NCBI GenBank assembly: GCA_030651765.1
Contig: JAUSBY010000015.1
Span: forward strand, 74,043 to 138,042
From: Coriobacteriia bacterium
GTDB taxonomy: Bacteria; Actinomycetota; Coriobacteriia; Anaerosomatales; Anaerosomataceae
Direction of reading: 5' to 3'
Length of the DNA: 64,000 bases
Shown here: positions 4,247-22,120 of the stretch, one piece after another
Numbering within the stretch: the stretch's first letter is position 1
Layout: each line of letters begins with the position of its first letter
Made by a program: the position numbers and the translations under genes
Notes under the pieces: generated by a model
Database searches by the model: none
Seen by the model: only the letters and a program-made list of their open reading frames with translations
Told to the model about the DNA's origin: nothing

Positions 4247-6652
4247 TCAGTAGGACAGGCGGATCACGGCACCCTGCTCGGTCACGAAGACACTCGGGAA
4301 GGTTCTGCTCGCTGGGATCAGCTCCCAGCCGTACGGGTAGCCCAGATTCTCCCAGTACTCGTAGTCGACGTGCACGTAGTAGGCTGTCGCGCGCACGGGG
4401 ACGACGATATCGTTCACGCCGCTCCAGCCGGCCCCTGTGTCGCTCCCTGTGGCCACGATGGTGCCGGTGGCGCCCCCGAGACGAACGGTCCAGCTCGCCC
4501 ATTCATCCTCGGCCGGACCGGGTTGTCCCTCGATGTCCGAGTCACCCCATACCAGCCTGATCGTCCCCGTCTGGCGGATGATCGTGAAGTTTGCGGTGTT
4601 GGGGCTCTCGACGTTGCCTGACCAGTCCTCGGACCAGAACGTGAGCGTGTGTGGAACCGCCCCGTCGAGGGCCGGTACGTTCACGATCGTGCCGGTCTGT
4701 GTGGGGCCGTCATCAAGCGAGTAGAAGGTAGCCTTCACACCATGCGTGCTCGCGTCGGTCGCCGTCAGGGTGATCGAGGCGTTGTACCAGTAGTAGGTTG
4801 TCTGAGCATTCGAGGTTGTGACTGGGGCGGTCACGTCCTCGACGATCGTGAAGTCAGCGGTGTTGTGTGTCGCCTCGGTGAGCCCGTTTTGATCGACCGA
4901 CCAGAACTCGATCGTATGCTCACCCGGCGCAACTATGAGTGCGGTCTTGCCCGTGAGCACCGCACCGCCATCCACGCGATAGTATGTCGTGCCGATCGCT
5001 GCCTTGCCGCCCTTAGTGATCGTGAACCGTATGAGAGCCGCGCCGTCGTAGGTCGCTCGCGCGTTCGACGATGTCACGGGCAGGGACGCACTGGCAGGGC
5101 TGGCGTGGCAGTTGAGGCAGTCCACGGGCCTCGGCCACCACGAGGACGGGTGGCACGCATCGCACCCCTCGTCGTATGCCTGCCAGTGCGTATCGAACGG
5201 CCCGTCGTGATAGGTCACGTGGCACTCACCCTGCTGGCAGCCACTGCCCCAGCCGGGCTCGAGCGTGTCGTACGGTGTCGCGTGGCATGCGACGCACTGG
5301 TCCGCGTGAACCGGCAACAGGTCCGTGACGTGGCATGTGGTGCACGGGGCATCGATGCCGTCTTCGGGGCCCGACACCCAGTCGTGCTTCTCGTCGAACA
5401 CCTGAACGTAGCCACTTCCCGGTGCTGCGTCATGGACGAGTGAGTGGCAGTTCAGGCACAGGCTGTTGGGCTCGGCGGACTCGGGAGTGCGCACGAGGAG
5501 GTTCGCGCGGTCACTCTCGTGCGGGAATGTCTGGAACTGCGGGTTGTCGGTGGGATCCGCGTCCGTCCCGTACGCGGTGACGCGGAACTCCTGATCGGCA
5601 TCGGTCAACGTAGGGTTGGTCTTCCGGGCCGACGGACCCACATCGCGTCCATCCTCATGACACTGCTGGCACAGCGGAGCTGCACCCTCCTGAAGTGGCG
5701 TCTTCAGGGTGGGTTCGCCAAGCGCCGGTCCGGGCATCACGTAGCCGCGGTTACTCTGACCGAGCGACCCGAGCTCGGTTGTGATGGAGCCGACGCCGGT
5801 CACGACGGGCAACTCCTCGTACGTGTAGGAGTCGTCGGCCATCACGGGGTGGTTCTGCATGGCCCCGGAGTCCTCGTCATGCTGGCCGAGTCGACCTTTG
5901 TGGCATCCGGCACACCAGCCCGCTCCATACTCGGCTACCGCCGAGTCGGCGCCGGTGGGCTGTGACCTGAGCAGACGGCTGGTCTTGGTGGCGTAGGCCG
6001 TCTCGCTTGCCGGCGCGCTTCGGAGCCGGTCTCCGGTGAACGGTTCCACCGTCTGCGAGTCGTGAGGTGAGTGGCAGTCGGTGCAGGTGAGCGTGTCGCC
6101 CGCGCCGGAGAAGGCAACGACGGCGGAGCCGCCGGCCGGGTCCCCGCCGGGCACGACGTTGGTCTGCCCCACGCGATGACCGGCGGTCGCGTCCACTCCC
6201 GTGCGGGCCTTGACCACGCCGTAGACGCCCGTCCCGCCGGTGCCGTCGTGGCACGACTCGCAGACGCCCTCGATCGTTTGGGCGGGGAGCAGCCTCGAAT
6301 CGGGTGCCGCGTGGATGTCGTGGCAGGTCTGGCACTTGCCGGTGGACGTCCGGTAGTTGCCGTGAGGTCCCTTGCGGATGTCGGCGAGCAAGGCGGGGTC
6401 GGTCCCGGGATCGAGAAGGTCGGCCTGCTCGTTGCCGTGGCAGTCGACGCAGCCGGCGCGCGCCAGACCATCGGGGTATGTGGCGTCGGGGTTGGGATAA
6501 GCAACCGCGGTCTGAGCGCCACAGAGAACGGCCAGGAAGCAGAGCACAAGCAGCGTGCCCCACGCGAGTATCCCGGGCCTGGCCTGGGTCAGGTTCACGG
6601 ACACGTGCCTCCGGCGGGTGCAGTTCGTGACCAAATAGCGAACAGAATGCAT
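4247..6652 (-). CDS. secreted multiheme c-type cytochrome (11 CxxCH plus 1 Cx4CH) with C-terminal Ig-like beta repeats
   Basis: Heme motifs: CVDCH, CQTCH, CESCH, CTDCH, CAGCH, CQQCH, CLNCH, CTTCH, CVACH, CQQGECH, CDACH, CLNCH. Hydrophobic signal-like segment ILAWGTLLVLCFLAVLCGAQTAVA. The C-terminus has repeated T/Y-rich beta modules. The start is uncertain: ATG at 6652, or in-frame GTGs near 6601 just ahead of the signal-like segment. Confidence 0.85.
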   Translation of the reverse strand: MHSVRYLVTNCTRRRHVSVNLTQARPGILAWGTLLVLCFLAVLCGAQTAVAYPNPDATYPDGLARAGCVDCHGNEQADLLDPGTDPALLADIRKGPHGNYRTSTGKCQTCHDIHAAPDSRLLPAQTIEGVCESCHDGTGGTGVYGVVKARTGVDATAGHRVGQTNVVPGGDPAGGSAVVAFSGAGDTLTCTDCHSPHDSQTVEPFTGDRLRSAPASETAYATKTSRLLRSQPTGADSAVAEYGAGWCAGCHKGRLGQHDEDSGAMQNHPVMADDSYTYEELPVVTGVGSITTELGSLGQSNRGYVMPGPALGEPTLKTPLQEGAAPLCQQCHEDGRDVGPSARKTNPTLTDADQEFRVTAYGTDADPTDNPQFQTFPHESDRANLLVRTPESAEPNSLCLNCHSLVHDAAPGSGYVQVFDEKHDWVSGPEDGIDAPCTTCHVTDLLPVHADQCVACHATPYDTLEPGWGSGCQQGECHVTYHDGPFDTHWQAYDEGCDACHPSSWWPRPVDCLNCHASPASASLPVTSSNARATYDGAALIRFTITKGGKAAIGTTYYRVDGGAVLTGKTALIVAPGEHTIEFWSVDQNGLTEATHNTADFTIVEDVTAPVTTSNAQTTYYWYNASITLTATDASTHGVKATFYSLDDGPTQTGTIVNVPALDGAVPHTLTFWSEDWSGNVESPNTANFTIIRQTGTIRLVWGDSDIEGQPGPAEDEWASWTVRLGGATGTIVATGSDTGAGWSGVNDIVVPVRATAYYVHVDYEYWENLGYPYGWELIPASRTFPSVFVTEQGAVIRLSY

Positions 6653-6765
6653 AAGAGTATGCCATATTCCGCAAGTTTCGTGCCGCTCGGGACGGCGCGG
6701 GGCTGCCGGCATCGACCCGGAGGAGTAGTCTTCTTCGCGAGGGCTGACCGGCCAGCGGGGTACTG

Positions 6766-7161
6766 CTAGCGGCCCCGCAGGTACTCGGCGGGGGGCAGCA
6801 CACGGACGCCACTCACAGTGGTGCCGAGGCACGGGCCGAAGTGCGTAAGGTCGCCCGTAAGGAGCACGTCGGCCCCGCTCACGATCGCGGCGAGGAGCAC
6901 CGGGCGGTCATTGGGCGGGAGGCCGGGGTCGTCTTCTATGCGGAAGTCGGCGGGCTCGGCGGGCAGCGCCACGAGCGCGGCGATGAGCGTCTCGAGGCGC
7001 TCGGCCGCATCAGGTGCAGGCACGTTGCGGCGTGCCTCGGCCAGCACGTGCGGAGAGGCGAGCAGTCGCACGCCCGGCAGCGTCCAGAGCGACGCGATTC
7101 GCGACGCGGGCTTGAGCGCGGCCGAGACGAGCACGTTGGCGTCAAGGAAGACCCGCTCCAC
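6766..7161 (-). CDS. PIN-domain toxin (PIN_3/VapC-like)
   Basis: VFLDANVLVSAAL ... ADVLLTGDLTHFG acidic PIN signature. The GTG start lies 3 nt after the stop of the upstream antitoxin. Confidence 0.8.
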   Translation of the reverse strand: MERVFLDANVLVSAALKPASRIASLWTLPGVRLLASPHVLAEARRNVPAPDAAERLETLIAALVALPAEPADFRIEDDPGLPPNDRPVLLAAIVSGADVLLTGDLTHFGPCLGTTVSGVRVLPPAEYLRGR

Positions 7162-9267: not shown

Positions 9268-12183
9268 ATGACTCCTCCTAGCGTTTCACGGGGCATTGCC
9301 TCGCGTATCCTCTACGGCGCCGCCTCTGCCGAGGTGTCCGACGACGGCCTTCTCATTTCCAGTAGGGGCGACAGGGAGTCGTTCGCCCTGGGCGAGTTGA
9401 ATGGACTACTCGCCCGCGAGGACGGCCTGATCTGGTCTACGATGCGGGTACCGACGGCCCGCGGAGAGCGCAGCCTGCGCGGACTGTCGAAGCAGCAGGT
9501 GGAACCGCTTATCGCCGCTGCCAATGCCGCTGTGGCCGAAGACGCCGCCAGCCGCTACGCGCATCTTGAGCCCATACTCAGTGCTCTCGTCACCCGCCTC
9601 GACGCGCTGGATGCTCGCTCGCGCTACATCCGCCACTCAGAGGCTAAGGCGCTGCTCGATGAGATCCGCTCAGCGCTCACGATCCGCTCAGACTCCCTCT
9701 GGCGTCAGTACGCTCCGCTGTCGCAGAAGGTGAAGATCGGGCGTTTGACGCTGCTCGCTGAATCCGAGGGTGGGATCGAGGGATGGATCGAGTCGGTCAG
9801 GTCGGCCTTCGTCGAACACGAGCTGGCTGAGCACGCCGCCTTCTTCGACAGCGTCGAGAGCAAGCCGCTCACCGAGGCACAGCGCCGGGCCTGCGTGATC
9901 GCCGAGGACAACAACCTTGTCCTTGCCGGCGCTGGCACCGGCAAGACCAGCGTCATGATCGGCCGCGCAGGGTATCTCATCTCGTCCGGCCGGGCGAAGC
10001 CGGACGAGATCCTCATGCTGGCATTCGGTCGCAAGGCGGCTCAGGAGATGCAGGGGCGACAGGACTCGCGGCTCGAGGCCTGGCTCACTGCCGGCACGCC
10101 GACGATCAAGACGTTCCACGCGCTCGGCCTCGAGATCATCGGGAAGGTGGAGGGCAGGCGCCCGGACATCACGGTCATGGCCGAAGACCAGCTGCGGTTC
10201 ACGACCTTCGTCGATGAGACGATAGCCTCGCAGTGCGAGGAGGATGAGTATCGGCAGCGACTGATCCGCTACTGCGGCACCGAGCGCTTCCCATACCGAA
10301 ACTGGTTCGACTTCACGACCGAGGCCGAGTACCTCGAGTACGTGCGGGTGAATGAGCTCCGCACGCTCAAGGGCGAGATCGTGAAGAGCTTCGAGGAGAT
10401 GTTCATCGCCAACTACCTCGCGAGCCAGGGTGTGACTTACGAGTACGAGCGCCCGTATGAGGTGGACACCGCCGGCGCGACCTATCGTCAGTACCGCCCA
10501 GACTTCTACCTGCCCGAGCACGGCGTCTACATCGAGCACTTCGCGCTCGACCGCAGTGGTGACCCGCCGCGGTACTTCGACCGTGCCCGGTACGTAGAAG
10601 GGGTTGCGTGGAAGCGGAAGCTTCATGCCGAGCACGGGACACGCCTGATCGAGACGTACTCGTACCTGAAGCGTGAGGATCTGCTGGAGACGACGCTCGA
10701 GGCGGCCCTGGCAGAGGCCGGTGTGACCTTCGATCCACAGCCCACCGAACAGTTGCTTGCGCAGTTGCGGGAGACATCGCAGGTTACGGACTTTGCAGCG
10801 CTGGTTGCGGACTTCATCGGGCTCATGAAGCAGTCCGGCCATACAATCCCCGAACTTCGCACCAAGGCTGTCGCGAACCTGGACGCGTCGCGCATCAATC
10901 TGCTGCTCGATCTGATTGCGCCCGTCTACCTGACCTATGAGGCGACGCTTGCCGAGCGTGGCGAAATCGACTTCGCAGACATGATCTCGCGCGCGACCGA
11001 GCATGTTGAGAGCGGCCGCTATCGGTCACCGTACACCCAGATCATGGTCGACGAGTTCCAGGACATCAGCCCTGCCCGGGCCCGGCTCATACAAGCGCTA
11101 CTGCGTCAGCGGCCCGAGGCGATGCTCTTCGCAGTTGGGGATGACTGGCAATCGATCTACCGCTTCACCGGGAGCGATCTGCGGTACACCACGCGCTTCT
11201 CTGAGATCTTCGGCGCCACCGCCGCAACGGCCCTCGATCTCACATTCCGTTTCAACGACAAGCTCGGTGATGCGGCTTCGAAGTTCGTGCTCAAGAACCC
11301 CGAGCAGGTCCGCAAGGAACTCGCGTCGATGCGCGCTCAGGATGAGCCGGCCGTCTCAATCGTCCCCGCGGCCGCCTTGCGTGTGGGGCTCGATGCGGTC
11401 CTTGAGGCGATACGCCTTCGGGCCGACGGACGGGGCGGGTCTCGGTCCACCGTGCTCGTTCTGGGGCGATTCACGTTCACGTACAGCGAGATCGCGAGTG
11501 CGGAGTACAGGGAGCAGTTGCGTCGGCTACATCCCGCCCTCGACGTGGAGTTCATGACTGCGCACGCGGCCAAGGGCAAGGAGGCCGACTACGTGGTCGT
11601 CTTGGATGTCTCCCAAGGCCGCTACGGATTTCCGAGTGAGCGGCCGGCCGAGCCTGCGCTGGAGTTCCTCTTGCCCGAGGCGGAGCCATTCCGCTTCGCC
11701 GAGGAGCGGCGGCTGTTCTATGTGGCGCTCACACGCGCGCGACACCGCACGTACGTTGTCTGCGACCCTGCGAAGCCATCGACGTTCGTAACCGAACTGC
11801 TGGCCGAAGATGACCCGTACCCGGTGTGCACTGATGAGTGCGGGACTCTCGCATCCGCGCTGACAGCGCAACTGCCCTGCCCTCGATGCCACTCAGGCCG
11901 CCTCGTGGTCCGTGCCGGTCCCTACGGCAGCTTCGTGGGGTGCAGCCACTACCCGTACTGTACGCATCAGGCGCCGGCGTGCCCGGCATGCGGTGGAGTC
12001 ATGCGGCGTACTGGCGAGAGGCGGGTCTGCGTGGACCCTGCGTGTGGCCACAGCGTGCGACTCTGCCCGCGATGCGGTGGTGACCTCGTAGTGCGCAAGG
12101 GGCCGTACGGCCAGTTCATCGGGTGCAGCAACTACGGCAAGGGTGCCTTCTCATGCGGGCACAAGGAGAAGGTAGAGGGGTAG
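9268..12183 (+). CDS. helD: DNA helicase IV (HelD)-like UvrD-family helicase with internal PD-(D/E)xK-like insert and three C-terminal topoisomerase-type zinc fingers
   Basis: FFDSVESKPLTEAQRRACV..NLVLAGAGTGKTSVMIGRAGYL, MVDEFQDISPARARL, LFAVGDDWQSIYRF, FMTAHAAKGKEADYVVVL and EERRLFYVALTRARHR are colinear with E. coli HelD as I remember it. Insert: YEYERPY..YRPDFYLPEHGVYIEHF. Tail: CPRCHSG..GCSHYPYC, CPACGG.., CPRCGG..GCSNYG. Confidence 0.85.
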   Translation: MTPPSVSRGIASRILYGAASAEVSDDGLLISSRGDRESFALGELNGLLAREDGLIWSTMRVPTARGERSLRGLSKQQVEPLIAAANAAVAEDAASRYAHLEPILSALVTRLDALDARSRYIRHSEAKALLDEIRSALTIRSDSLWRQYAPLSQKVKIGRLTLLAESEGGIEGWIESVRSAFVEHELAEHAAFFDSVESKPLTEAQRRACVIAEDNNLVLAGAGTGKTSVMIGRAGYLISSGRAKPDEILMLAFGRKAAQEMQGRQDSRLEAWLTAGTPTIKTFHALGLEIIGKVEGRRPDITVMAEDQLRFTTFVDETIASQCEEDEYRQRLIRYCGTERFPYRNWFDFTTEAEYLEYVRVNELRTLKGEIVKSFEEMFIANYLASQGVTYEYERPYEVDTAGATYRQYRPDFYLPEHGVYIEHFALDRSGDPPRYFDRARYVEGVAWKRKLHAEHGTRLIETYSYLKREDLLETTLEAALAEAGVTFDPQPTEQLLAQLRETSQVTDFAALVADFIGLMKQSGHTIPELRTKAVANLDASRINLLLDLIAPVYLTYEATLAERGEIDFADMISRATEHVESGRYRSPYTQIMVDEFQDISPARARLIQALLRQRPEAMLFAVGDDWQSIYRFTGSDLRYTTRFSEIFGATAATALDLTFRFNDKLGDAASKFVLKNPEQVRKELASMRAQDEPAVSIVPAAALRVGLDAVLEAIRLRADGRGGSRSTVLVLGRFTFTYSEIASAEYREQLRRLHPALDVEFMTAHAAKGKEADYVVVLDVSQGRYGFPSERPAEPALEFLLPEAEPFRFAEERRLFYVALTRARHRTYVVCDPAKPSTFVTELLAEDDPYPVCTDECGTLASALTAQLPCPRCHSGRLVVRAGPYGSFVGCSHYPYCTHQAPACPACGGVMRRTGERRVCVDPACGHSVRLCPRCGGDLVVRKGPYGQFIGCSNYGKGAFSCGHKEKVEG

Positions 12184-13371: not shown

Positions 13372-14307
13372 ATGCGCGGCTACATCGGGAACACCGACTA
13401 CGACTGGTACCGCTTCTTGGCCTCGCAGCCCGGCATCGACGAGGTGAACTTCTGGCAGCCGTCGGCAAGCGCGAGCTTCAGCGCGCTGCGGCCCGGCGAG
13501 CCATTCTTCTTCCGCCTCAAGTCGCCGCACAACGCGATCGCCGGCTTCGGGTACTTCGCGAGCTTCAGCGCGCTGCCGGCGTGGCTCGCATGGGAGAGCT
13601 TCGGGCCCAAGAACGGCGCCGCCGATTTCGACGAGATGCGCGCCCGCATCGAGCGCTACCGCCGTCGCAACGGCGCGCCTGCCTCCCAGCGTCCGGGCGA
13701 CTACTCGATCGGCTGCATCATGGTGGCGAGCCCGGTGTTCTTCCCCGAGGAGCTGTGGGTTCGCGAGCCGAAGGGCTGGGCCCCCAACATCGTGCGCGGT
13801 CGCGGTGAGGATCTCACGACCGGCGAGGGCCTGCGCATCTTCACCGAGAGCCTCGACCGCGCGCAGCACCTGGGCGCGCCGGTGTTGGCCGCCGAGCCGG
13901 GCGCGCCCCGCTACGGTGAGCCGACGCTCGTGGCGCCGCGGCTCGGGCAGGGTATCTTCCGCGTGTCGGTTCTCGACGCGTACGACCGCGCGTGCGCGGT
14001 CACGGGCGAGCACTCGCTGCCGGTGCTCGAGGCGGCGCACATCATGCCGTACGCGTCCGGCGGCACGCACCAGGTCACCAACGGGTTGCTGCTCCGAAGC
14101 GACATCCACCGCCTGTTCGACCTGGGCTACGTGACGGTCACGCCCGAGTATCGCTTCCAGATCTCAGATGCGCTGGCCGAGGACTTCCACAACGGTCGGA
14201 CGTACTACGCCGAGCGGGGGAAGCGAGTGATCCTGCCGAAGGCGGAGGAGATGCGTCCGAGCAGGGACCTGCTCGCGTGGCATGGAGAGAGTGTGTGGCG
14301 GGGGTGA
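13372..14307 (+). CDS. HNH endonuclease (HNH_2 type) with ~170-aa N-terminal putative DNA-reader domain; candidate restriction nuclease
   Basis: C-terminal CAVTGEHSLPVLEAAHIMPY....NGLLLRSDIHRLFDLGYVTV is the HNH_2 pattern found in COG3440-like predicted restriction endonucleases. Only this copy is intact. Confidence 0.85.
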   Translation: MRGYIGNTDYDWYRFLASQPGIDEVNFWQPSASASFSALRPGEPFFFRLKSPHNAIAGFGYFASFSALPAWLAWESFGPKNGAADFDEMRARIERYRRRNGAPASQRPGDYSIGCIMVASPVFFPEELWVREPKGWAPNIVRGRGEDLTTGEGLRIFTESLDRAQHLGAPVLAAEPGAPRYGEPTLVAPRLGQGIFRVSVLDAYDRACAVTGEHSLPVLEAAHIMPYASGGTHQVTNGLLLRSDIHRLFDLGYVTVTPEYRFQISDALAEDFHNGRTYYAERGKRVILPKAEEMRPSRDLLAWHGESVWRG

Positions 14308-14388
14308 TTGCTCACCCGGGGATTCAGCCTCCCCGTGTCAGCATGATGAGCTATCCTCCAGAACGGGAGACCTGAATCTAGGAGCGAG

Positions 14389-15093
14389 TTGAAGCACCGA
14401 TACGCATATGAGCGTGAGCTCGTCGCCGACTTAGTTGATGAGCTGCCGGCCACCCCCGTCTCCAATCTGCCGCTTGCTGCAGCATGGGGCGAGGTGGTCT
14501 TCTCCACTCGTGTCGTGGACGTAGTCGGGCTGTACGCGTCATCACAGTGCTCACAAGTCGGTGAGGCCCTCGCTGGTTTCGAGGACAGAGATCTTCTGGT
14601 TCTTGCAGCAATCATCGCCTGTGGTCCGATATCTAGTGAACGGCTTACCTCAACGCTCGGGGCGGGAGCGGAGCGGGCAGTAAAGCAGTCGGTCGGCCGG
14701 CTGATGAACAATGATCTCGTGAGCCCAGGTCCGCGGGCATTGCGATCATCCTTGGGAGAAGTGCTGAAGGAATGCGAAGTTGCTGCAATTGAGGCGAAGC
14801 TGCACAAGCAGAAGGACGTGCTGCGTCAGGCAGAAGACAATCTGGGGCTGGCCGACTTCTCCTATGTCGCACTACCAGTAACGGTTGCCTTCAAGGAGGA
14901 TTTCCTGACCAGCGCACGTACGTGTGGGCTGGGGGTCATGTCCGTAGATCCAACTGGGTTGTTCGTACTGGTCAGGGCGCCGAGACGGCGTGGCGCGAGG
15001 CGAGGCATCGTACAGACGCATTTCACGTTGCGCCTGTTGCAGGAGAGTGCTGCCAGGACCGGCAGATGGATTAGCACAGGGGGGACTACCTAA
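14389..15093 (+). CDS. hypothetical protein, possible PD-(D/E)xK nuclease fold interrupted by a winged-helix domain
   Basis: TTG start with AGGAG 6 nt upstream. VVDVVGLY (Asp strand) ... wHTH-like LLVLAAIIACGPISSERLTSTL..SVGRLMNNDLVS ... AAIEAKLHK (ExK). The fold assignment is inference only. Confidence 0.55.
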   Translation: MKHRYAYERELVADLVDELPATPVSNLPLAAAWGEVVFSTRVVDVVGLYASSQCSQVGEALAGFEDRDLLVLAAIIACGPISSERLTSTLGAGAERAVKQSVGRLMNNDLVSPGPRALRSSLGEVLKECEVAAIEAKLHKQKDVLRQAEDNLGLADFSYVALPVTVAFKEDFLTSARTCGLGVMSVDPTGLFVLVRAPRRRGARRGIVQTHFTLRLLQESAARTGRWISTGGTT

Positions 15094-15890
15094 TGGGCGG
15101 TTTCAGCCCCGACCTTCAAGCGTCCGAAATCCAGGGGCAGATTCCGGGGTTGAGTCTAGCTAGTGCGCTGCCCGCAGGCGGACAAGGCGCCGTCTTTCGG
15201 GGAGTCCATGCCGAGCATGGCGACGTCGTTCTGAAGGTCGTCCTGCCGCAGTTCGAAGAACGAACGCGCCGCGAAATCGACGCCCTCCGTACACTCCGTC
15301 TGCCGAATGTGGTTCGACTGCTGGATCATGGCTACATCGACGTGAGGCAGGAGACTTGCCCTTACACACTGACGCGACTGGTAACAGGGGATGACATTAG
15401 AACGCGCATCCTTAACGGAGACCATATGGACGAGTTTCAGGCACGCGAGCTTATCCGTGGAGTAGCCGCCGCGCTTGACGAGTTGTGGCGCAAAGAAATC
15501 GTGCACAGAGACGTGAAGCCACCGAACATCATTTGGTCGACGTTGGGGACTGCCGTGCTCATAGACCTGGGCGTCGCGCGACATCTGACACGAACGGATC
15601 TGACGACGTATGGAGGATGGCTGGGGACGCGAGGCTTCATGGCGCCCGAACAAGCCTCTGGGGAGAAGCACCTGACCGTACGAGCCGACGTCTTTGGCCT
15701 AGGGGTAACGGCACACATGGCCATTACTGGAGTGCATCCATTTGGTGGCCAAGACGAGATTATGGCCGGGAAGAGGCCGACTAGCGTTGCGACAGTGAGC
15801 GACAACTTGTCGGCTCTCCTACTGTCGATGATGTCATTGAGGCCGATCGATCGCCCGACGGCTCGAAACCTGTTGGAGGCGTTGTCTTGA
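15093..15890 (+). CDS. Hanks-type Ser/Thr protein kinase, kinase domain only
   Basis: GGQGAVFRG (G-loop), VVLKVV (Lys), HRDVKPPNIIW, DLGVAR, GTRGFMAPE. The ATG overlaps the upstream stop (TAATG). Confidence 0.85.
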   Translation: MGGFSPDLQASEIQGQIPGLSLASALPAGGQGAVFRGVHAEHGDVVLKVVLPQFEERTRREIDALRTLRLPNVVRLLDHGYIDVRQETCPYTLTRLVTGDDIRTRILNGDHMDEFQARELIRGVAAALDELWRKEIVHRDVKPPNIIWSTLGTAVLIDLGVARHLTRTDLTTYGGWLGTRGFMAPEQASGEKHLTVRADVFGLGVTAHMAITGVHPFGGQDEIMAGKRPTSVATVSDNLSALLLSMMSLRPIDRPTARNLLEALS

Positions 15891-17137
15891 TGCCGAAGAT
15901 GCTCTACAACTGCCACGGTTCCTGGAGTTGTCGAGGGATTGAGGCGGCGGATGGTCGAATCATCCACGCCGCCGGCTTCGCTGAGAAGCGAGACTGCACT
16001 GGAGCGGCATCTGAAGGATTCGGTATCGTCGACTGCGATCCTCTGGTGTGGAATCTGCCGTATGACCCCCACGCAACTGTCTGCAACAAGATTGCTACGC
16101 ATGCGTTTCTTCCGATTGCCACGCCCCGCTTTGAAGATTGGCACGGCAAGGAGAGCGAGTGGATCGCCGCGGCAATCGCCCCGGTGGTATCAGCGGATTG
16201 GCCTCCTCCCTTGCCTTCAACTACTGGAGACATCGAGGGATTCATCGTCGACTGCCTGACCTGGCAAGGTCGCCTGCAGCCCACGTTGCTGACTGTTCCG
16301 ACGCCCCCGCTTGCGGGAGCGACGCCGGACTTGGATGCATTCCTCAAATGGCTACGCGCAGGTACACGTGCGGCTTCATACCTGCAGCCGAGCGAGACCA
16401 CGCTATTGTCCGTCACGGTAGAGGAAGGACTGCTCTCGACAGTAGGGGACGTCCTTCTTGACCAGATCACCGCCAGAGAGGGAATCGACGGGGTCTACTT
16501 GAACGTTGTCACGCACAAGACCGAGTTGGGCGAGCGGATCACTCAGGATGTGGCGACTTCACTTGTGCGGTTCGTTCGCGACCTCGCGCCTCACAGGCGC
16601 GTCTTCGTGAATGGCGTCGATCTCTTCGGATTGGTGCTACTCGGGGCCGGCGCGGAAGGAATCGGAATCGGCTATGAGCTTAAGGGGATGCGCCTGAACA
16701 CCAACGACTTCAAAGACACCAACAGTCGAGGAGCGTTTCCAAGAATGCTGTCGCTGGCGCTGTGCAAGAGGTTGGCCTTGGCAGAAATCGAGGTGCTTCG
16801 CAACGTTGGCTTGTTGGATCGTCTCGAGTCGGACCGTACCGATTCAAGCTCTGTACTCCTTGACGCTATACGTGACCGTCGGGACCTACGCACGATTATT
16901 CCGTGGCGACCCACTAAGGGGACTGTGGGTGAGGCACGGCGCCACTACATTCTTCGGCATGAAGGGGTCAAGCGCGAGTTGGATCCCATGAGCCAACGGG
17001 AGCGCTGGGAGTGGGTCGCGGGCTGGCTAGATACCTGCGACGCAAACATCAGCGACTTCTGTCAAGCGACTGGCAAGCGCCCGCAACAGGTGGGGGCGGG
17101 TCACGTGTCCGCTTGGCGTGAAGCAGTGTCTAAGTAG
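15890..17137 (+). CDS. hypothetical 415-aa protein with no recognisable motif
   Basis: The ATG overlaps the kinase stop (TGATG). Composition is coding-like and the ORF is long in a lower-G+C stretch. I recognised no motif. Confidence 0.65.
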   Translation: MPKMLYNCHGSWSCRGIEAADGRIIHAAGFAEKRDCTGAASEGFGIVDCDPLVWNLPYDPHATVCNKIATHAFLPIATPRFEDWHGKESEWIAAAIAPVVSADWPPPLPSTTGDIEGFIVDCLTWQGRLQPTLLTVPTPPLAGATPDLDAFLKWLRAGTRAASYLQPSETTLLSVTVEEGLLSTVGDVLLDQITAREGIDGVYLNVVTHKTELGERITQDVATSLVRFVRDLAPHRRVFVNGVDLFGLVLLGAGAEGIGIGYELKGMRLNTNDFKDTNSRGAFPRMLSLALCKRLALAEIEVLRNVGLLDRLESDRTDSSSVLLDAIRDRRDLRTIIPWRPTKGTVGEARRHYILRHEGVKRELDPMSQRERWEWVAGWLDTCDANISDFCQATGKRPQQVGAGHVSAWREAVSK

Positions 17138-17230
17138 ACCAGTAGTGGCTGTATTGGACGATTCCGCGCATCGCAGATAAAGTCGTTCAAGTTGGGAGGG
17201 AGTCCGGGCGATTGATTCACGGCTGACTCT

Positions 17231-19009
17231 ATGCGGCCGGTAGTGACGACGGTTAGTCTACACGTCCTTGGATGCTTCGTATCGATGTCTACTATCGCAT
17301 TGCGCGGTGAGGTAGAAGAGGAATCCCCGGACGCCCTTCCACTCCGCGACGCCTTTCTTGCGATTCTCGATCTTGAGGACCTTGCATCCTTCTTCGGTAC
17401 GGCGTACGAGGACTTGGGCCGCCTCATCTACGGCTACAAGCCGCAGTACAAGTATCGGACGTTCCTGATTCCGAAGAAGCGCAGCGGTTATCGAAAGATA
17501 TCGACCCCGTGCAAGAGCCTGAGACGCATTCAGAATCGGCTGAAGGCCGCCTTGGACGAGGTCTATCGGCCAAAGGCCTCAGTACACGGTTTCGTGAACG
17601 ACAGGAGCATCGTCACTAACGCGGACGCCCACCTCCGCAAACGGTACGTGTTCAACCTGGATCTGAGGGACTTCTATGGCTCGATCCACTTCGGCCGGGT
17701 GCGCAACCTGTTCATGAAGGATCCGTTCTCCTTCTCGTACGAGGTAGCGACCGTTGTCGCGCAAATCTGCTGCTTCGAAGGGTCTTTGCCTGCCGGGGCT
17801 CCGACTTCGCCTGTTGTCTCCAACATGATCGCCAGGAAGCTTGACTCCCGCTTGCAGACGATGGCCCGCAGGCGAAATTGCACCTACAGCAGGTACGCCG
17901 ACGACATCACCTTCTCATTTGACAAGCCGAGACTGCCCCATGACCTGGTCGATACTTCGGGCATGCACGCCCAGCCGGGCGCGGCGCTGCTGCAGGCAAT
18001 TGAGGACAACGGCTTCGAGGTGAATTATGAGAAGGTGCGATTGACCGGCCGATCTCAGCGGATGGAAGTCACCGGCCTGACGGTAAACGAGGCCGTGAAC
18101 GTTCGACGCCAATACGTTCGAGAACTGTCGTCAATGCTGCATGCATGGGAGAAGTTCGGTCTCGACAAGGCACAGGAGACCTTCCACTCAAGATTCGCGA
18201 AGCCTCACAGCGCTAGCGGTCAGCCCAAGTCTCTCGCTCATGTCGTGCACGGTAAGCTGGCGTTCTTGAAGAGTGTTAGGGGCGGGGACGATCCTCTGTA
18301 TAACCGGCTCGCCAGTAGGTTCAACAAGCTGGTGGGCGACAGCGCACTCGCATTGAATGTCGTCTCAATCTATGGTGCCGAGGAGTCATTGTGGATCGTG
18401 CACGCTAATGATCCGAAGGATACGAAGGAGCTTGAGCACCAAGGCAGCGGCTTCTCGTTGAGAGGAGTCGGCATTGTTACTTGTTGGCATGCCGTGAGTG
18501 AGCCGGTCTCACCGAAGTCCAGGTCGAGAAGACTGCTACCCATCGTCGAGGTATCAGGCTGGGATCGTCCGCTACCACGAACTCGTGCCAAGGTTGTCTT
18601 TCACGACGAAGACAGGGACCTGGCGATCTTACAGCGAGTAGGCGTTGACGAGGCCAAGACCACCCCCGCGCTCGTGATGTCAGAGCGTGACATCGCACAT
18701 CGACTACCACTCCACCTGCTTGGCTTTCCGGGCTGGCATGTTGGCGAAAGCTATAGCGACAAAGCGGTCAGGATATCGGCCTTGCGTACGGATCACGGTG
18801 TGCAGAAGTTCAACATTGACCAGCGGATTGACCATGGCAATAGTGGCGGCCCTCTCGTTGACGTAGAAGGCAAGGTGGCCGGAGTCGCCGTTGAACGCTC
18901 GTGGGATGGAGTCGGTAAGGACGGCGCTATTCACTACCTGGAATTGGAAGTAGTAGTCGAGGCATATCTTGACGACTTGGCATCAGGCAACGACCTGGCT
19001 GGGGCATAG
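17231..19009 (+). CDS. retron-type reverse transcriptase fused to a C-terminal trypsin-like (S1/Trypsin_2) serine protease
   Basis: RT motifs: NADAH (NAxxH), FNLDLRDFYGSI, SPVVSN, YSRYADDITFSF (YADD at 17894-17905), MEVTGLTVN (VTG). Protease triad: TCWHAV (His 18488-18490), DRDLAIL (Asp 18617-18619), GNSGGPLVD (Ser 18842-18844). Alternative ATG at 17285. Confidence 0.85.
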   Translation: MRPVVTTVSLHVLGCFVSMSTIALRGEVEEESPDALPLRDAFLAILDLEDLASFFGTAYEDLGRLIYGYKPQYKYRTFLIPKKRSGYRKISTPCKSLRRIQNRLKAALDEVYRPKASVHGFVNDRSIVTNADAHLRKRYVFNLDLRDFYGSIHFGRVRNLFMKDPFSFSYEVATVVAQICCFEGSLPAGAPTSPVVSNMIARKLDSRLQTMARRRNCTYSRYADDITFSFDKPRLPHDLVDTSGMHAQPGAALLQAIEDNGFEVNYEKVRLTGRSQRMEVTGLTVNEAVNVRRQYVRELSSMLHAWEKFGLDKAQETFHSRFAKPHSASGQPKSLAHVVHGKLAFLKSVRGGDDPLYNRLASRFNKLVGDSALALNVVSIYGAEESLWIVHANDPKDTKELEHQGSGFSLRGVGIVTCWHAVSEPVSPKSRSRRLLPIVEVSGWDRPLPRTRAKVVFHDEDRDLAILQRVGVDEAKTTPALVMSERDIAHRLPLHLLGFPGWHVGESYSDKAVRISALRTDHGVQKFNIDQRIDHGNSGGPLVDVEGKVAGVAVERSWDGVGKDGAIHYLELEVVVEAYLDDLASGNDLAGA

Positions 19010-19118
19010 AGACGGCAGATCACGATTACGGGCGTGACAACAGCCCTCTCTTTCCAGGCTTGACCTGCTGAGATTCCACGACTCCTAATCCCAGGGTCAA
19101 CTGTCGCTTGGCCATTCT

Positions 19119-19460
19119 CTACAGCTCCGTGTACTTCTCCCGCTTGCCCTTCGCCTTCTTCGCGGGGTACCTCTCGTCGTTCTTCGCGAGCTTTCGCTGC
19201 ACCGCCTTGGCCGGATCGATCCCCGTATCGTGTGCGAGCAGCAGCGCGTAGATCAGCACGTCGGCGATCTCCTCTTCGATCTCGCTGCGACGCTTCTCCA
19301 CGTCCTCAGCGATTGTCTCGTCGCTGCTCCACTGGAAGCATTCGAGCAACTCAGCGGCCTCGATGCTTATGCTCGCCGCCAGGTTTCTCGGCGAGTGGAA
19401 CTGCTTCCAGTCGCGCTCGTCTCGGAACTCCACGATCTGTCGGGTGAGGTCTTCGAGCAT
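19119..19460 (-). CDS. MazG-like nucleotide pyrophosphohydrolase (single-domain)
   Basis: FRDERDWKQFHSPRNLAASISIEAAELLE..EEIADVLIYALLLA is the EExxE/metal-binding helix pattern of MazG/YpjD-type enzymes. A GGAGGG RBS lies in the 3' end of the upstream gene, with a 5-nt spacer after its stop. Confidence 0.85.
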   Translation of the reverse strand: MLEDLTRQIVEFRDERDWKQFHSPRNLAASISIEAAELLECFQWSSDETIAEDVEKRRSEIEEEIADVLIYALLLAHDTGIDPAKAVQRKLAKNDERYPAKKAKGKREKYTEL

Positions 19461-19465
19461 CGGTA

Positions 19466-21403
19466 TCAGCCCTCCAGCGGGTCTTCGGCGGCGAGTGGCG
19501 CGGCGGTCGGCGTGAGCGCGTAGTCGGCCTTCGGCATGCGGCTGCGCAGGTACTCGCCCAGTGCAGCTTCGGTGCAGAACACGTAGCAGCCCTTCATGCC
19601 GCGGGTCATGAGCACGCGGTAGGTGTTGCGGATGAGATCGTCGGCGATGCGGGCGGCGCGCTCGGGGTCGTGCTTGGCGAGCTTCACGATGCCGCTGAGC
19701 GCCTTGTCGGACTTTGCACGCTTCGTGCGGTCGGTGATCACGCGGCCACCCTCGAAGCGCAGGTCGTTGCCCACGATCACGCCCACGTAGTCGAACTCGA
19801 GTCCCTGGCAGGTGTGGATGCAGCCCACCTGGTCGACCGAACCCTCGTCGATCGCCCACGTGTCGCTGTTGTTGAGGTTCCACGAGCGCGCGTAGGTGTG
19901 CGCGGGGATGACGATGTCGTGGTGGTTGGGGTTCGCGCGCCTGGCGCCGCTTTCCCACTCCCAGCAGTAGCCGGCCACCACGCGCGACTTGTTGGCCACA
20001 CGGTTCTTTTCGGCGATGGCTGCGTGCATTGCGTTCGGGTCGTCGAAGACGCGGAAGTCGTAGTCGAGGTCGGCCACATCCTCCTCGGCAGGGCGGATGC
20101 CCAGCACATCGTCGAGCCAGGTGAGGTAGCCGTCGCTGCCATTGCAGCGGAACTGCGAGAACAGGTCGGCCTCGTGGACGTGCGCACCCGCCGCCTCGGC
20201 ATGCGCACGGATGTCGGACACCGTGCCGGCGTCGCGGAGCGTGACGCGCTGCGTCTCGTCGATGAAGAAGACCGTGAAGCGCGCCGCCGCGATGAGCTCG
20301 GCAATCTGGTTCTCGCCCAGGTTGCCGTACAGGCCCGACTTCTCGTTCAGTCGGTGCGCTTCGTCGATCACGAGCGCGTCGAACGATTCCTCGGCCAGCT
20401 CCCAGAAGGCGCCCGAGCCGCGAAAGAGGTTGTTGATGTATGAGAGGGTGCGGTCTCTCCCGCGCAGCAGGCGCGCGTACACGTTGCGCGGCGCGCTGTT
20501 CTTGGAGACGTACTGGACCGTCATCTCCTCGGCGGTGAGACGCACGAGCAGGTTCACCGCCACCACCGACTTGCCGGTGCCAGGGCCGCCCCGGACGATG
20601 AGCACGTGCTTCTCGCTGGTGCGCTGCGCCTCGCGCGCGAGGGCCACGGCGGCCTCGAAGACCACCTTCTGGTCGTCGATCATCACGAACTCGTCGTTGC
20701 CGTCGAGCATGCCGGCAAGCGCGTCCTGGAGCGACTTGGACGGGCGCAGTCGGCCGCTCTCGATGTGGTAGAGCACCGCCCCGTCGTCGGCGTGCGTGAT
20801 GTGGCGGCAGATGAAATTGCGGAGCTTCAGCGCGTCGCCGTTGCAGAACGCGGGTGCACGCTCGAGGTACTCGAGGTAGGCGGGGTCGAGCAGGGGGTCG
20901 TACCCCTCGGCGGTGTGGTAGTTGTGCAGGTACGCGCAGGGCACGAGCTCGATCTGCGCGTCTCGGACGGCCTCGTTGTAGTCCTCGATCATGCGGGCGT
21001 ACGACCACGCCTGGTAGGAGGGGTGGGAGACCTCGCGGTGTGCGCCGCCCACGAACGTGCGCACGATGGCGTCTTTGGTGGGCACCGCCTCGAGAGCGCT
21101 CCACTGCTTGAGCTCCACGATCACCGCAGCGTCGCGGTCGCCGTTCTGGCGGCCGGTGAGCAGGAAGTCGATTCGGCTGCTCGTGTACGGCACCCCAAAC
21201 TCGATCGCCACGCCGCAGCCGCCGGGGATCGCCTCGGTGTTGAGCACCCGGTACATGTACTGCATCGAGTTGCGCCAGCTCTCCACCTCGCGCGGGTTGG
21301 CGCGGTGGATCCTGCGCTCGAAGGCCGCCGTGATGTGGTCGACGATCAAGTCGCGGTCCACGTCGTCCATGAACTCGGCCTTGGAGGCTTGATAGACGAG
21401 CAC
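19466..21403 (-). CDS. DUF2075-family (Schlafen-like) P-loop ATPase/helicase-like protein
   Basis: N-terminus VLVYQASKAEFMDDV..., Walker A GGPGTGKSVVAVNLL, DEAHRL, and C-terminal VLMTRGMKGCYVF are typical of DUF2075. GTG start at 21403 chosen because family members start at (M/V)xVYQ. Confidence 0.85.
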   Translation of the reverse strand: MLVYQASKAEFMDDVDRDLIVDHITAAFERRIHRANPREVESWRNSMQYMYRVLNTEAIPGGCGVAIEFGVPYTSSRIDFLLTGRQNGDRDAAVIVELKQWSALEAVPTKDAIVRTFVGGAHREVSHPSYQAWSYARMIEDYNEAVRDAQIELVPCAYLHNYHTAEGYDPLLDPAYLEYLERAPAFCNGDALKLRNFICRHITHADDGAVLYHIESGRLRPSKSLQDALAGMLDGNDEFVMIDDQKVVFEAAVALAREAQRTSEKHVLIVRGGPGTGKSVVAVNLLVRLTAEEMTVQYVSKNSAPRNVYARLLRGRDRTLSYINNLFRGSGAFWELAEESFDALVIDEAHRLNEKSGLYGNLGENQIAELIAAARFTVFFIDETQRVTLRDAGTVSDIRAHAEAAGAHVHEADLFSQFRCNGSDGYLTWLDDVLGIRPAEEDVADLDYDFRVFDDPNAMHAAIAEKNRVANKSRVVAGYCWEWESGARRANPNHHDIVIPAHTYARSWNLNNSDTWAIDEGSVDQVGCIHTCQGLEFDYVGVIVGNDLRFEGGRVITDRTKRAKSDKALSGIVKLAKHDPERAARIADDLIRNTYRVLMTRGMKGCYVFCTEAALGEYLRSRMPKADYALTPTAAPLAAEDPLEG

Positions 21404-21491
21404 GGGGCGGCTCCGGGGAAGAGCGGGCAAGGGCTGGGACCAGGGTAGCAGAGGAGGGAGGCGGTTCACTCCCCTTCGGCATCTTGACCAA

Positions 21492-21507
21492 TCGAACATA
21501 TGTTCTA
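21492..21507. promoter_or_regulatory. SOS (LexA/Cheo) box-like palindrome TCGAACATATGTTCTA
   Basis: Perfect 12-bp palindrome GAACATATGTTC at 21494-21505 in the divergent intergenic region between the DUF2075 and ORF6N genes. It matches the Gram-positive LexA consensus CGAAC-N4-GTTC. Confidence 0.45.
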
Positions 21508-21529
21508 TCATGGGCAGTGGGGATGTGTC

Positions 21530-21596
21530 CTGTGATTTCAAGTCAGGCCTGTGACCAGGGCAAACGATCTTGACATCACAGACTGTGATTTCAAGT
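21530..21596. repeat. two direct copies of CTGTGATTTCAAGT (21530-21543 and 21583-21596)
   Basis: Exact 14-mer repeated 53 bp apart in the same divergent promoter region. ATCTTGAC also occurs twice (21481 and 21566). Confidence 0.6.
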
Positions 21597-21607
21597 TGGG
21601 GGAAACC

Positions 21608-22120
21608 ATGACGGACGGGACTGCACTGATGCCGGTTGAGGCTGCGGAGTTGCGCATTCGTGTCGTCCGGGATACCCGGGTAATCCTTGATGCTGACCTT
21701 GCCGTGCTCTACGGGGTGGAGACACGTATGCTCGTGCAGGCGGTCCGCCGCAACCCCGACCGCTTCCCTTCGGACTTCATGTTCGAGCTGACATTGGACG
21801 AGTGGGCGGCCCTCAGGAGTGCTGCATCGGCCATGGATGGCTGGGGTGGGCGCCGCACGCCGCCGCTCGCCTTCACGGAGCAGGGCATCGCAATGCTCTC
21901 CAGCGTGCTCCGTAGTCCCCGGGCGGTCGCGGTCAACGTGCAGATCATGCGTGCGTTCGTGCGGCTGCGCGAGATTCTTGCGGAGAACGCAGACCTGTCG
22001 CGTCGGCTGGATGATCTGGAGCAGCGATACGACGACCAGTTCAAGATCATCATCCAGGCGATTCAGGCGCTCACGGCACCACCGGTGAGGCCGCGGAATC
22101 CGGTGGGGTTCAGGCCCTGA
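21608..22120 (+). CDS. ORF6N/KilA-N-like DNA-binding domain protein
   Basis: IRVVRDTRVILDADLAVLYGVETRMLVQAVRRNPDRFPSDFMFELT is the ORF6N pattern, followed by a coiled-coil C-terminus. Start uncertain (GTG 21551 or ATG 21608). Confidence 0.65.
   Translation: MTDGTALMPVEAAELRIRVVRDTRVILDADLAVLYGVETRMLVQAVRRNPDRFPSDFMFELTLDEWAALRSAASAMDGWGGRRTPPLAFTEQGIAMLSSVLRSPRAVAVNVQIMRAFVRLREILAENADLSRRLDDLEQRYDDQFKIIIQAIQALTAPPVRPRNPVGFRP

Follow-up and report, generated by a model that had tools for sequence, protein, structure and literature searches.

An apparently complete type XI retron with a fused reverse transcriptase-protease gene in a Coriobacteriia genome

Background

Type XI retrons, a class defined by Mestre et al. 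2020 (NAR), join the motifs of a clade-8 reverse transcriptase (RT), a helical extension and a C-terminal protease with a His, Asp and Ser triad in one protein, and they are listed by DefenseFinder and PADLOC as a 'single gene' retron. In the present study we analyse a locus of this kind in a 64-kb stretch of DNA from a Coriobacteriia metagenome-assembled genome (MAG); this stretch is called the window below, and all coordinates count from its first letter. An initial annotation had noted here an open reading frame (ORF) fusing a retron-like RT to an S1 protease, and had missed both the non-coding RNA (ncRNA) that appears to complete the retron and the prior description of the class. Overall, we consider it likely that the locus is a complete and canonical type XI retron, in which multicopy single-stranded DNA (msDNA) would restrain a protease effector acting against phages. 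The ncRNA lies directly upstream of the gene, as in validated members of the class, while the window differs from the described type XI retrons in its Coriobacteriia host, in an RT start codon which lies with about 19 codons inside the msd and the second repeat arm (a2) of the predicted ncRNA, in a divergent loop of the msr stem-loop SL1, and in an adjoining rare kinase cassette. With regard to the RNA, Mestre et al. 2020 described type XI as 'lacking recognizable ncRNA modules', and a preprint by Toro (2026) still lists it with the types that lack a covariance model (10.64898/2026.05.14.725207). Khan et al. 2024 report validated ncRNAs from 'clade 8, type XI', and their Supplemental Data 1 gives the ncRNAs together with the sequenced RT-DNAs (10.1101/2024.01.25.577267).

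The nearest solved structure, and also the nearest solved sequence, is retron Eco2/Ec67 (type I-C1; PDB 9lm3, 9i2f and 9s1f). It has the same layout of RT and effector in a single polypeptide, and the same msr module lies upstream of type I-C genes; its effector, however, is a Toprim RNase cutting tRNA, whereas that of the window is a protease. In Eco2 a trimer is built on a scaffold of branched msDNA, which cages the Toprim domain; once this msDNA is degraded by DenB, a phage nuclease, tRNA cleavage is unleashed (PMC12916289). The Eco2 authors propose the same logic for type XI; the trimer, the caging by msDNA and the DenB trigger are shown for Eco2 only and are assumed for the window. Retrons of type XII (RT-TIR) are 50-58% identical to the window protein in the RT and helical region (P0102, P0106, P0114 and P0115) and have the msr module in common (locus L029), but they end in a TIR domain where the window has a protease. 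Among the elements of Khan et al., Terminal 1122, 1235 and 1278 belong to the same ncRNA family, and the landmarks GGGTAGC and GTAAAAGAG at the bounds of the Terminal 1278 template have counterparts in the window; unlike the window element they are proteobacterial, their ncRNAs were separated from the RT gene for the tests, and the variable msd hairpin of the window is unrelated to theirs. As for the protease, the S1C proteases HtrA/DegS/DegP and MarP (Rv3671c) share with it the double beta-barrel and the motifs TxxH, D(L/I)A(I/V)L and GNSGGP, while the window protease differs in being fused to an RT, predicted to be cytoplasmic, and free of a PDZ domain, signal peptide or membrane anchor.

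Results

The RT-protease gene and its start codon

The ORF at 17231..19009 on the plus strand (592 amino acids, aa) runs without a stop codon or frameshift, so the break between the domains that might have undone the initial annotation is absent, and one polypeptide carries both a retron-like RT and an S1 protease, as had been claimed. Above the curated cut-offs, Pfam finds RVT_1 at residues 80-285 (9e-21) and Trypsin_2 at residues 405-552 (1e-12). The PADLOC model RT-Protease_XI aligns with residues 44-573 and covers profile positions 5-501 of 506 (E=1e-166); in the PADLOC ranking it is followed by RT-TIR_XII (residues 41-402, 6e-123) and RT-Toprim_I-C (residues 49-384, 1e-108). In PADLOC, NCBIfam and the PDB alike, the RT is matched best by retron RTs. 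We therefore class the gene, on its profile matches, as a canonical type XI retron RT-protease, a fusion already known from Mestre et al. 2020. Group II intron RTs, defence-associated RTs (DRT) and abortive infection (Abi) RTs were considered as well and rejected, since their PADLOC and NCBIfam scores are far lower.

NCBI holds an identical protein (P0001) of 574 aa from a Coriobacteriia MAG, and this copy begins at M19 of the 592-aa ORF, which is position 17285. The closest relative, locus L042 (62% identity), has an in-frame TAG upstream, and its ATG aligns with the window ATG at 17285. In addition, the PADLOC family profile begins at about residue 43 of the 592-aa ORF, and the first 18 codons of this ORF (17231-17284) fall within the predicted ncRNA. 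These comparisons place the start codon at ATG 17285, position 17231 being merely the start of the longest ORF; thus the ORF first annotated at 17231-19009 is intact and has the right end, while its start has to be moved. Apart from L042, members of the family share 38-46% identity with the window protein. The gene and its domains are as follows.

17285..19009, plus strand: RT-protease coding sequence, 574 aa from the conserved ATG (PADLOC match, NCBI protein, L042 and AlphaFold2 (AF2) model)
17468..18085, plus strand: RT fingers and palm (Pfam RVT_1), with NADAH, YADD and VTG inside
18107..18334, plus strand: helical thumb/extension, earlier called a linker (AF2 helices; RT-TIR_XII and RT-Toprim_I-C profiles)
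18443..18886, plus strand: trypsin-like protease of the PA clan, HtrA/DegS-like, without PDZ (Trypsin_2, triad and Foldseek)

Motifs, conservation and structure

All motifs of the initial annotation lie where it had put them. On the RT side, FNLDLRDFY starts at 17651 and VTGLTVN at 18068, and the retron RT motifs are NADAH at 17618-17632 (region X, NAxxH), YADD at 17894-17905 and VTG at 18068-18076 (region Y). In the protease, the catalytic His is at 18488-18490 (TCWHAV), the Asp at 18617-18619 (DRDLAIL) and the Ser at 18842-18844 (GNSGGP). A search across 5.8 billion proteins gave more than 100 fused homologues with identities of 38-62%, and conservation was read from an alignment of 53 of these fused homologues (38-61% identity), with residues numbered in the 592-aa ORF. 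Both active sites are intact and conserved: the 53 proteins show no variation at H420, D463 and S538 (S520 in the 574-aa numbering), at the Tyr and the two Asp of YADD, in NAxxH or at the Thr of VTG, and the V and G of VTG are conserved in at least 90%. A wider set of 120 matches retains the His in 115, the Asp in 113 and the Ser in 113, the exceptions being RT-TIR, RT-only or truncated proteins. A triad missing from most relatives, which would have told against two working domains, is thus not what the family shows.

The AF2 model, computed from the 53-protein alignment, has a mean pLDDT (predicted value of the local distance difference test) of 89.9 and realises the full-length structure prediction that the initial annotation had proposed. 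For the RT half the nearest structure is the cryo-EM structure of retron Eco2/Ec67 (Foldseek E=8e-27, 31-35% identity), and a sequence search of the PDB with phmmer likewise gives the Eco2 RT at E=2e-55 over residues 22-294. The protease half is nearest to DegS, HtrA and MarP in Foldseek, with a target-normalised template modelling (TM) score of 0.72-0.75 for DegS. No type XI structure is present among the PDB matches. The order His-Asp-Ser, the GxSGG oxyanion motif and the double beta-barrel are those of the S1 proteases in the PA clan, and the triad aligns residue for residue with the solved M. tuberculosis HtrA1 (TNNHV, DLAVL and GNSGGPL). The protein is nevertheless outside HtrA sensu stricto: there is no PDZ match, the chain stops about 40 residues past the protease domain, and the NCBIfam scores for HtrA/DegP/DegS are 16-25 bits against cut-offs of 350-800, that for MarP (1e-10) being also far below its cut-off.

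Between the two domains the initial annotation saw a linker of about 60 aa (residues 320-380), and this part of it does not hold. The AF2 model has helices at 275-291, 293-303, 317-332 and 337-350 in the 574-aa numbering, most 10-residue blocks of residues 275-350 have pLDDT of 73-92, and the region is covered by the sister profiles, to residue 402 by RT-TIR_XII and to residue 384 by RT-Toprim_I-C. The model thus indicates a conserved and structured thumb/extension, common to RT-Toprim (Eco2) and RT-TIR retrons, rather than a spacer. With regard to localisation, the 574-aa protein has no signal peptide and no transmembrane segment, its maximal Kyte-Doolittle value over 19 residues being 1.32, and its N-terminus is acidic. 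With the corrected start the protein is thus free of a hydrophobic segment, and the earlier suggestion of a cytoplasmic protein stands.

Fused and split homologues were also compared. Of 123 related loci, a strict threshold leaves 46 with a match to the protease domain. In 42 of these 46 the RT continues into the protease in the same frame and without a break; in L068 and L118 the frame is shared as well, but the gap between RT and protease is longer. Separate RT and protease genes were found in none of the 123 related loci, so that the search proposed earlier comes out in favour of the fusion, homologues being colinear and a possible frameshift being confined to 2 of about 46 loci. In these two, L089:1231-1908 and L019:2161-2397, the protease is out of the RT frame, which may be due to a pseudogene, a programmed frameshift or an assembly error. 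Relatives without the protease carry Toprim, TIR or other C-terminal domains, and P0093, P0095 and P0107 are RT-only. We also observe one protein of 626 aa (L106) which has the common RT and a C-terminal domain outside all three fusion profiles.

A candidate ncRNA overlapping the start of the gene

Directly upstream of the RT-protease gene and on the same strand lies a candidate retron ncRNA with the following parts.

17193..17341, plus strand: candidate retron ncRNA (msr-msd), an a1/a2 inverted repeat with 117 nt between the arms
17193..17208, plus strand: a1 arm (TGGGAGGGAGTCCGGG), from the repeat search and identical in L042
17220..17239, plus strand: msr stem-loop SL1, CGGCTG, an 8-nt loop and CGGCCG, with covariation in the family
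17251..17320, plus strand: predicted msd template of about 70 nt, by homology projection with inferred boundaries; it holds the RT start codon
17326..17341, plus strand: a2 arm (CCCGGACGCCCTTCCA), from the repeat search, within the RT coding sequence

The a1/a2 inverted repeat is 16 nt long and 88% complementary, and the ncRNA region folds with -66.2 kcal/mol (z=-2.33). L042 carries the same element: its a1 is identical, its a2 differs and is perfectly complementary to a1, and its SL1 stem is retained as CGGCUG/CAGUCG. The ncRNA is strongly conserved between the two loci in several blocks, the flanking coding DNA being about 67% identical. The window also has GGTTAG at 17251 and GGTAGAAGAG ending at 17320, which are the equivalents of the template bounds of Terminal 1278. 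With an adjacent RNA on the same strand, a1/a2 repeats and an internal stem-loop, the element has the parts expected of a retron ncRNA, and we read it as completing the retron. A scan of 14000-21000 with Rfam at permissive thresholds gave no retron model and two matches at chance level (Xoo5 and Cobalamin, E>6).

The position of the element relative to the gene is unusual, since the RT start codon and the first 19 codons (17285-17341) are at the same time part of the predicted msd template and of the a2 arm, whereas a2 stops before the start codon in most other type XI loci. Judging from these loci, the overlap of start codon and msd appears to be a peculiarity of the window lineage. The peptide EVEEESPD, encoded in the region 17285-17341, is conserved with L042 and has low pLDDT; its conservation is probably due to constraint on the RNA.

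One ncRNA family in retron types I-C, XI and XII

To place the element in its family, we used 55 loci with full-length fused genes, gathered by scans of a genome collection and of metagenomes. The genome-collection scan, with a single-protein query, returned mostly the protease-less types I-C and XII, fused genes being limited to L002 and L004, and a family-alignment query in the metagenome scan was needed to gather the fused loci. Nearly all of the 55 loci have a strong inverted repeat which encloses 85-150 nt and reaches to the RT start or to a point shortly before it. The median gapless stem upstream of the RT is 13 nt (47 fused loci), compared with 9 nt in in-gene windows of the same size (Mann-Whitney p=2e-9) and 9 nt in dinucleotide shuffles (p=2e-12). 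This enrichment is how the a1/a2 repeat was judged; its covariation is left out of the evidence because the loci were chosen by that very repeat. The gapless finder skipped the a1/a2 of the window, which has one mismatch, and these arms come from the separate repeat search. Inside the arms the loci follow a common plan, namely a spacer, SL1 (whose loop is conserved), a motif of GTTAG type, a variable hairpin and GGTAnAAGAGRAA.

In the full-length MAFFT alignment of the ncRNA, both ends and the variable msd hairpin are ragged, so covariation was tested for SL1 alone and the covariance model was built from the 5' half. As SL1 played no part in the selection of loci, its covariation is an independent test. 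Over 47 loci, 86% of the cells pair, while shuffles give 62% and slid controls 28-56%, and 78 cells are changed on both sides where 24 are expected; the observed values are reached by 0/500 shuffles. The covariance model, R1, was trained on 42 loci with the window and L042 excluded. Applied to 79 unseen loci, it matches 55 times at E<=1, without exception on the RT strand and in nearly every case no more than about 250 nt upstream of the RT match. The strongest of the held-out loci are RT-Toprim I-C (L026, L001, L110, L079 and L066) and RT-TIR XII (L029), and the msr matches of four of them are given below (R1 model).

L026:4748-4825, held-out msr match
L001:5768-5846, held-out msr match
L110:1789-1869, held-out msr match
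L029:5814-5894, held-out msr match

Since a model trained on type XI finds the elements of types I-C and XII, the three types appear to have one msr-RT cassette with exchangeable C-terminal effectors. In the window (64 kb, both strands, E<=10), R1 gives a single match, of weak score, at 17202-17281 on the plus strand, which is the expected site.

The family is also linked to experiment by mapping the ncRNAs of Khan et al. onto our loci. The element of the fused locus L108 has 99% identity to the ncRNA of Terminal 1122, and that of L092 closely resembles the ncRNA of Terminal 1235. Khan et al. report an RT-DNA of 55 nt with a yield of 0.02 times Eco1 for Terminal 1122, and one of 68 nt with a yield of 0.09 times Eco1 for Terminal 1235 (10.1101/2024.01.25.577267). 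The sequenced RT-DNA of Terminal 1278 maps from GGGTAGC to GTAAAAGAG.

The upstream cassette and the gene neighbourhood

Three genes with overlapping stop and start codons lie directly upstream of the retron on the same strand.

14389-15093, plus strand: 234-aa protein, cassette gene 1
15093-15890, plus strand: Ser/Thr kinase, 265 aa (PADLOC PD-T4-6 4e-44, mad6 5e-43)
15887-17137, plus strand: 416-aa protein, TGT-like TIM-barrel (tRNA-guanine transglycosylase, TGT), cassette gene 3

L042 has the same gene order, with identities of 43%, 60% and 47% for the cassette proteins and 62% for the RT-protease. The cassette is known from four loci, which are the window (14389-17137), L042:743-3484, L124:3-2074 and L125:3-2618. 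In the window and L042 it is followed by a type XI retron, while in the other two it occurs without one, and the genes after it are an Abi_C gene in L124 and a 191-aa gene with GmrSD_N in L125; R1 has no match in either of these cassette-only loci. It is present in none of the other 53 fused type XI loci. From this distribution we take the cassette to be a separate and rare module found beside varied defence genes, which may represent an undescribed kinase-based defence module. That it might be a general accessory of type XI was considered and rejected, as it is missing from the 53 other fused loci and occurs without a retron. A G+C block at about 14300-19100 suggests a joint horizontal acquisition of cassette and retron.

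The 416-aa protein has no match in Pfam, PADLOC or NCBIfam, and 40 members of its family have none in Pfam or PADLOC; the family consists of uncharacterised proteins of about 420 aa, with 175 cluster representatives. Its AF2 model is a beta/alpha barrel with pLDDT 92.9 and a predicted TM score (pTM) of 0.92, and the fold is weakly similar to tRNA-guanine transglycosylase (Foldseek E ~2e-4, TM ~0.45-0.5, ~11% identity). The model suggests a TGT/DpdA-like enzyme of base exchange, or one that binds nucleic acid.

The wider neighbourhood includes the following genes.

4247-6832, minus strand: multihaem cytochrome c of 861 aa, with Paired_CXXCH, cytochrome c7 and MtrC/MtrF-like domains
9268-12183, plus strand: UvrD/helicase IV-like protein with topoisomerase-type zinc ribbons
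13372-14307, plus strand: HNH_2 nuclease, resembling phosphorothioate-dependent restriction enzymes
19119-19463, minus strand: MazG-like pyrophosphatase (1.7e-22), directly downstream of the helicase
19466-21541, minus strand: DUF2075/Schlafen group 3 helicase (1e-99)
21551-22120, plus strand: ORF6N protein (PADLOC PDC-S05, 2e-48)

A 790-aa ORF at 19119-21491 is an out-of-frame artefact across the MazG-like and helicase genes. The HNH nuclease, the PD-T4-6-like kinase, the MazG-like protein, the helicase and the ORF6N protein around the retron are consistent with a defence island. Apart from these, the 861-aa cytochrome may point to extracellular electron transfer in the organism, or to a respiratory capacity of a similar kind.

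Discussion

Based on the parts described above, the locus would work as follows. The ncRNA would fold via its a1/a2 arms, and the RT would recognise the msr stem-loop and copy the msd, from about 17320 back to about 17251, into protein-bound msDNA of about 65-70 nt. This msDNA would keep the fused effector inactive, as in the sister retron Eco2, until it is cut, modified or sequestered by some phage activity; the protease freed in this way would then cleave cytoplasmic proteins and stop the growth of the infected cell (abortive infection). That msDNA restrains the protease is carried over by analogy, as are the trigger, the substrates and the defence activity; given the common msr-RT cassette and the conserved helical extension, the analogy with Eco2 is reasonable. 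In accordance with this, the defence-type gene neighbourhood suggests a role in defence. The effector role proposed in the initial annotation agrees with the existing classification of the protein class; for the window protein itself it would follow from the same analogy.

Several observations weigh against this reading. The R1 score of the window element is weak and not significant (12.5 bits, E=0.46), and in L042 the top match, although at the expected place, is also not significant (6.4 bits, E=2.4). Owing to these weak scores, the ncRNA of the window rests on its position, the a1/a2 arms, the common motifs and the conservation with L042. The low score follows from the divergent loop sequence of SL1, and the msr of the window and L042 lineage is accordingly best regarded as a divergent member of the family. 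A scan for sigma-70 and terminator consensus sequences near the ncRNA gave nothing useful, such a scan being uninformative for a high-GC genome of actinobacterial type. In type XI relatives the RT-DNA yields of Khan et al. are low, 0.02-0.09 times Eco1. The AF2 model has a pTM of 0.62, by which the relative placement of the domains is unreliable and caging is unreadable from the model. Finally, according to the Eco2 paper, type I-C is the only type of fusion retron with a mechanism, and we found no published experiment on phage defence or toxicity of type XI in the literature.

The alternatives concern the protease, the locus as a whole and the cassette. It is unlikely that the protease is no toxic effector and instead processes the fusion itself, freeing or maturing the RT, or serves as a structural or oligomerisation module. 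The fold match does fall in the group of HtrA/DegS-type proteases, which are regulated oligomers, no substrate is known, and the RT-only relatives P0093, P0095 and P0107 tell that an RT can exist without the protease domain. However, the triad and GNSGGP are invariant in 53/53 fused proteins, which points to catalysis and not to scaffolding; the sister retrons with the common msr-RT cassette have a Toprim or TIR effector at the same position, toxic in Eco2; and no conserved split arrangement of RT and protease was found among the related loci. Less probable still is an inactive remnant or assembly artefact, be it a hidden frameshift, a chimera, or an RT without a working ncRNA. More than 100 fused homologues are colinear with the ORF, which is intact and retains all of its catalytic and retron motifs; the same 5.5 kb also occurs, in identical assembly, in a Logan contig that may derive from the same reads; and the ncRNA is better conserved with L042 than the coding flanks and carries changes that preserve pairing. 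These points outweigh the origin of the sequence from a MAG, the poor score of the lineage ncRNA against the family model and the start codon within the msd, which is unusual for the family.

The cassette raises the further alternative of a four-gene system, in which the cassette would sense or regulate and the RT-protease execute, or the reverse. Identical gene order in L042 in spite of protein divergence would fit such a system, as would the overlap of the cassette genes, the short distance of 55 nt between the stop of the 416-aa gene and a1 with no terminator or promoter consensus there, and the single block of about 5 kb in which cassette and retron have 56-61% GC, compared with a background of 64-70%. 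But the cassette is absent from all 53 other fused type XI loci and occurs without a retron in L124 and L125, where the ncRNA model matches neither, only two independent co-occurrences of cassette and retron are known, and both PADLOC and Mestre 2020 class type XI as a single-gene system, so that we regard this alternative as unlikely. Also unlikely is a co-transcribed composite, in which the retron would be non-autonomous with the cassette of kinase, TGT-like and 234-aa proteins, and the overlap of msd and start codon would feed back on the dosage of the RT-protease. In this case reverse transcription and removal of the template by RNase H would destroy the RT's own translation-initiation region.

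Conclusions

The locus analysed here provides a fully annotated candidate for a type XI retron from a high-GC host of actinobacterial type, with ncRNA landmarks and a predicted msd, for a retron class which is without a published defence assay, structure, trigger or substrate. The msr-RT cassette apparently common to types I-C, XI and XII makes the caging known from Eco2 a concrete and testable model for a protease effector. The overlap of the msd with the start codon, if true as a feedback, would link msDNA synthesis to the dosage of the RT-protease. And if a cytoplasmic protease under the control of a retron were shown to be the killing module, it would represent a proteolytic arm of retron immunity and a DNA-gated protease switch.

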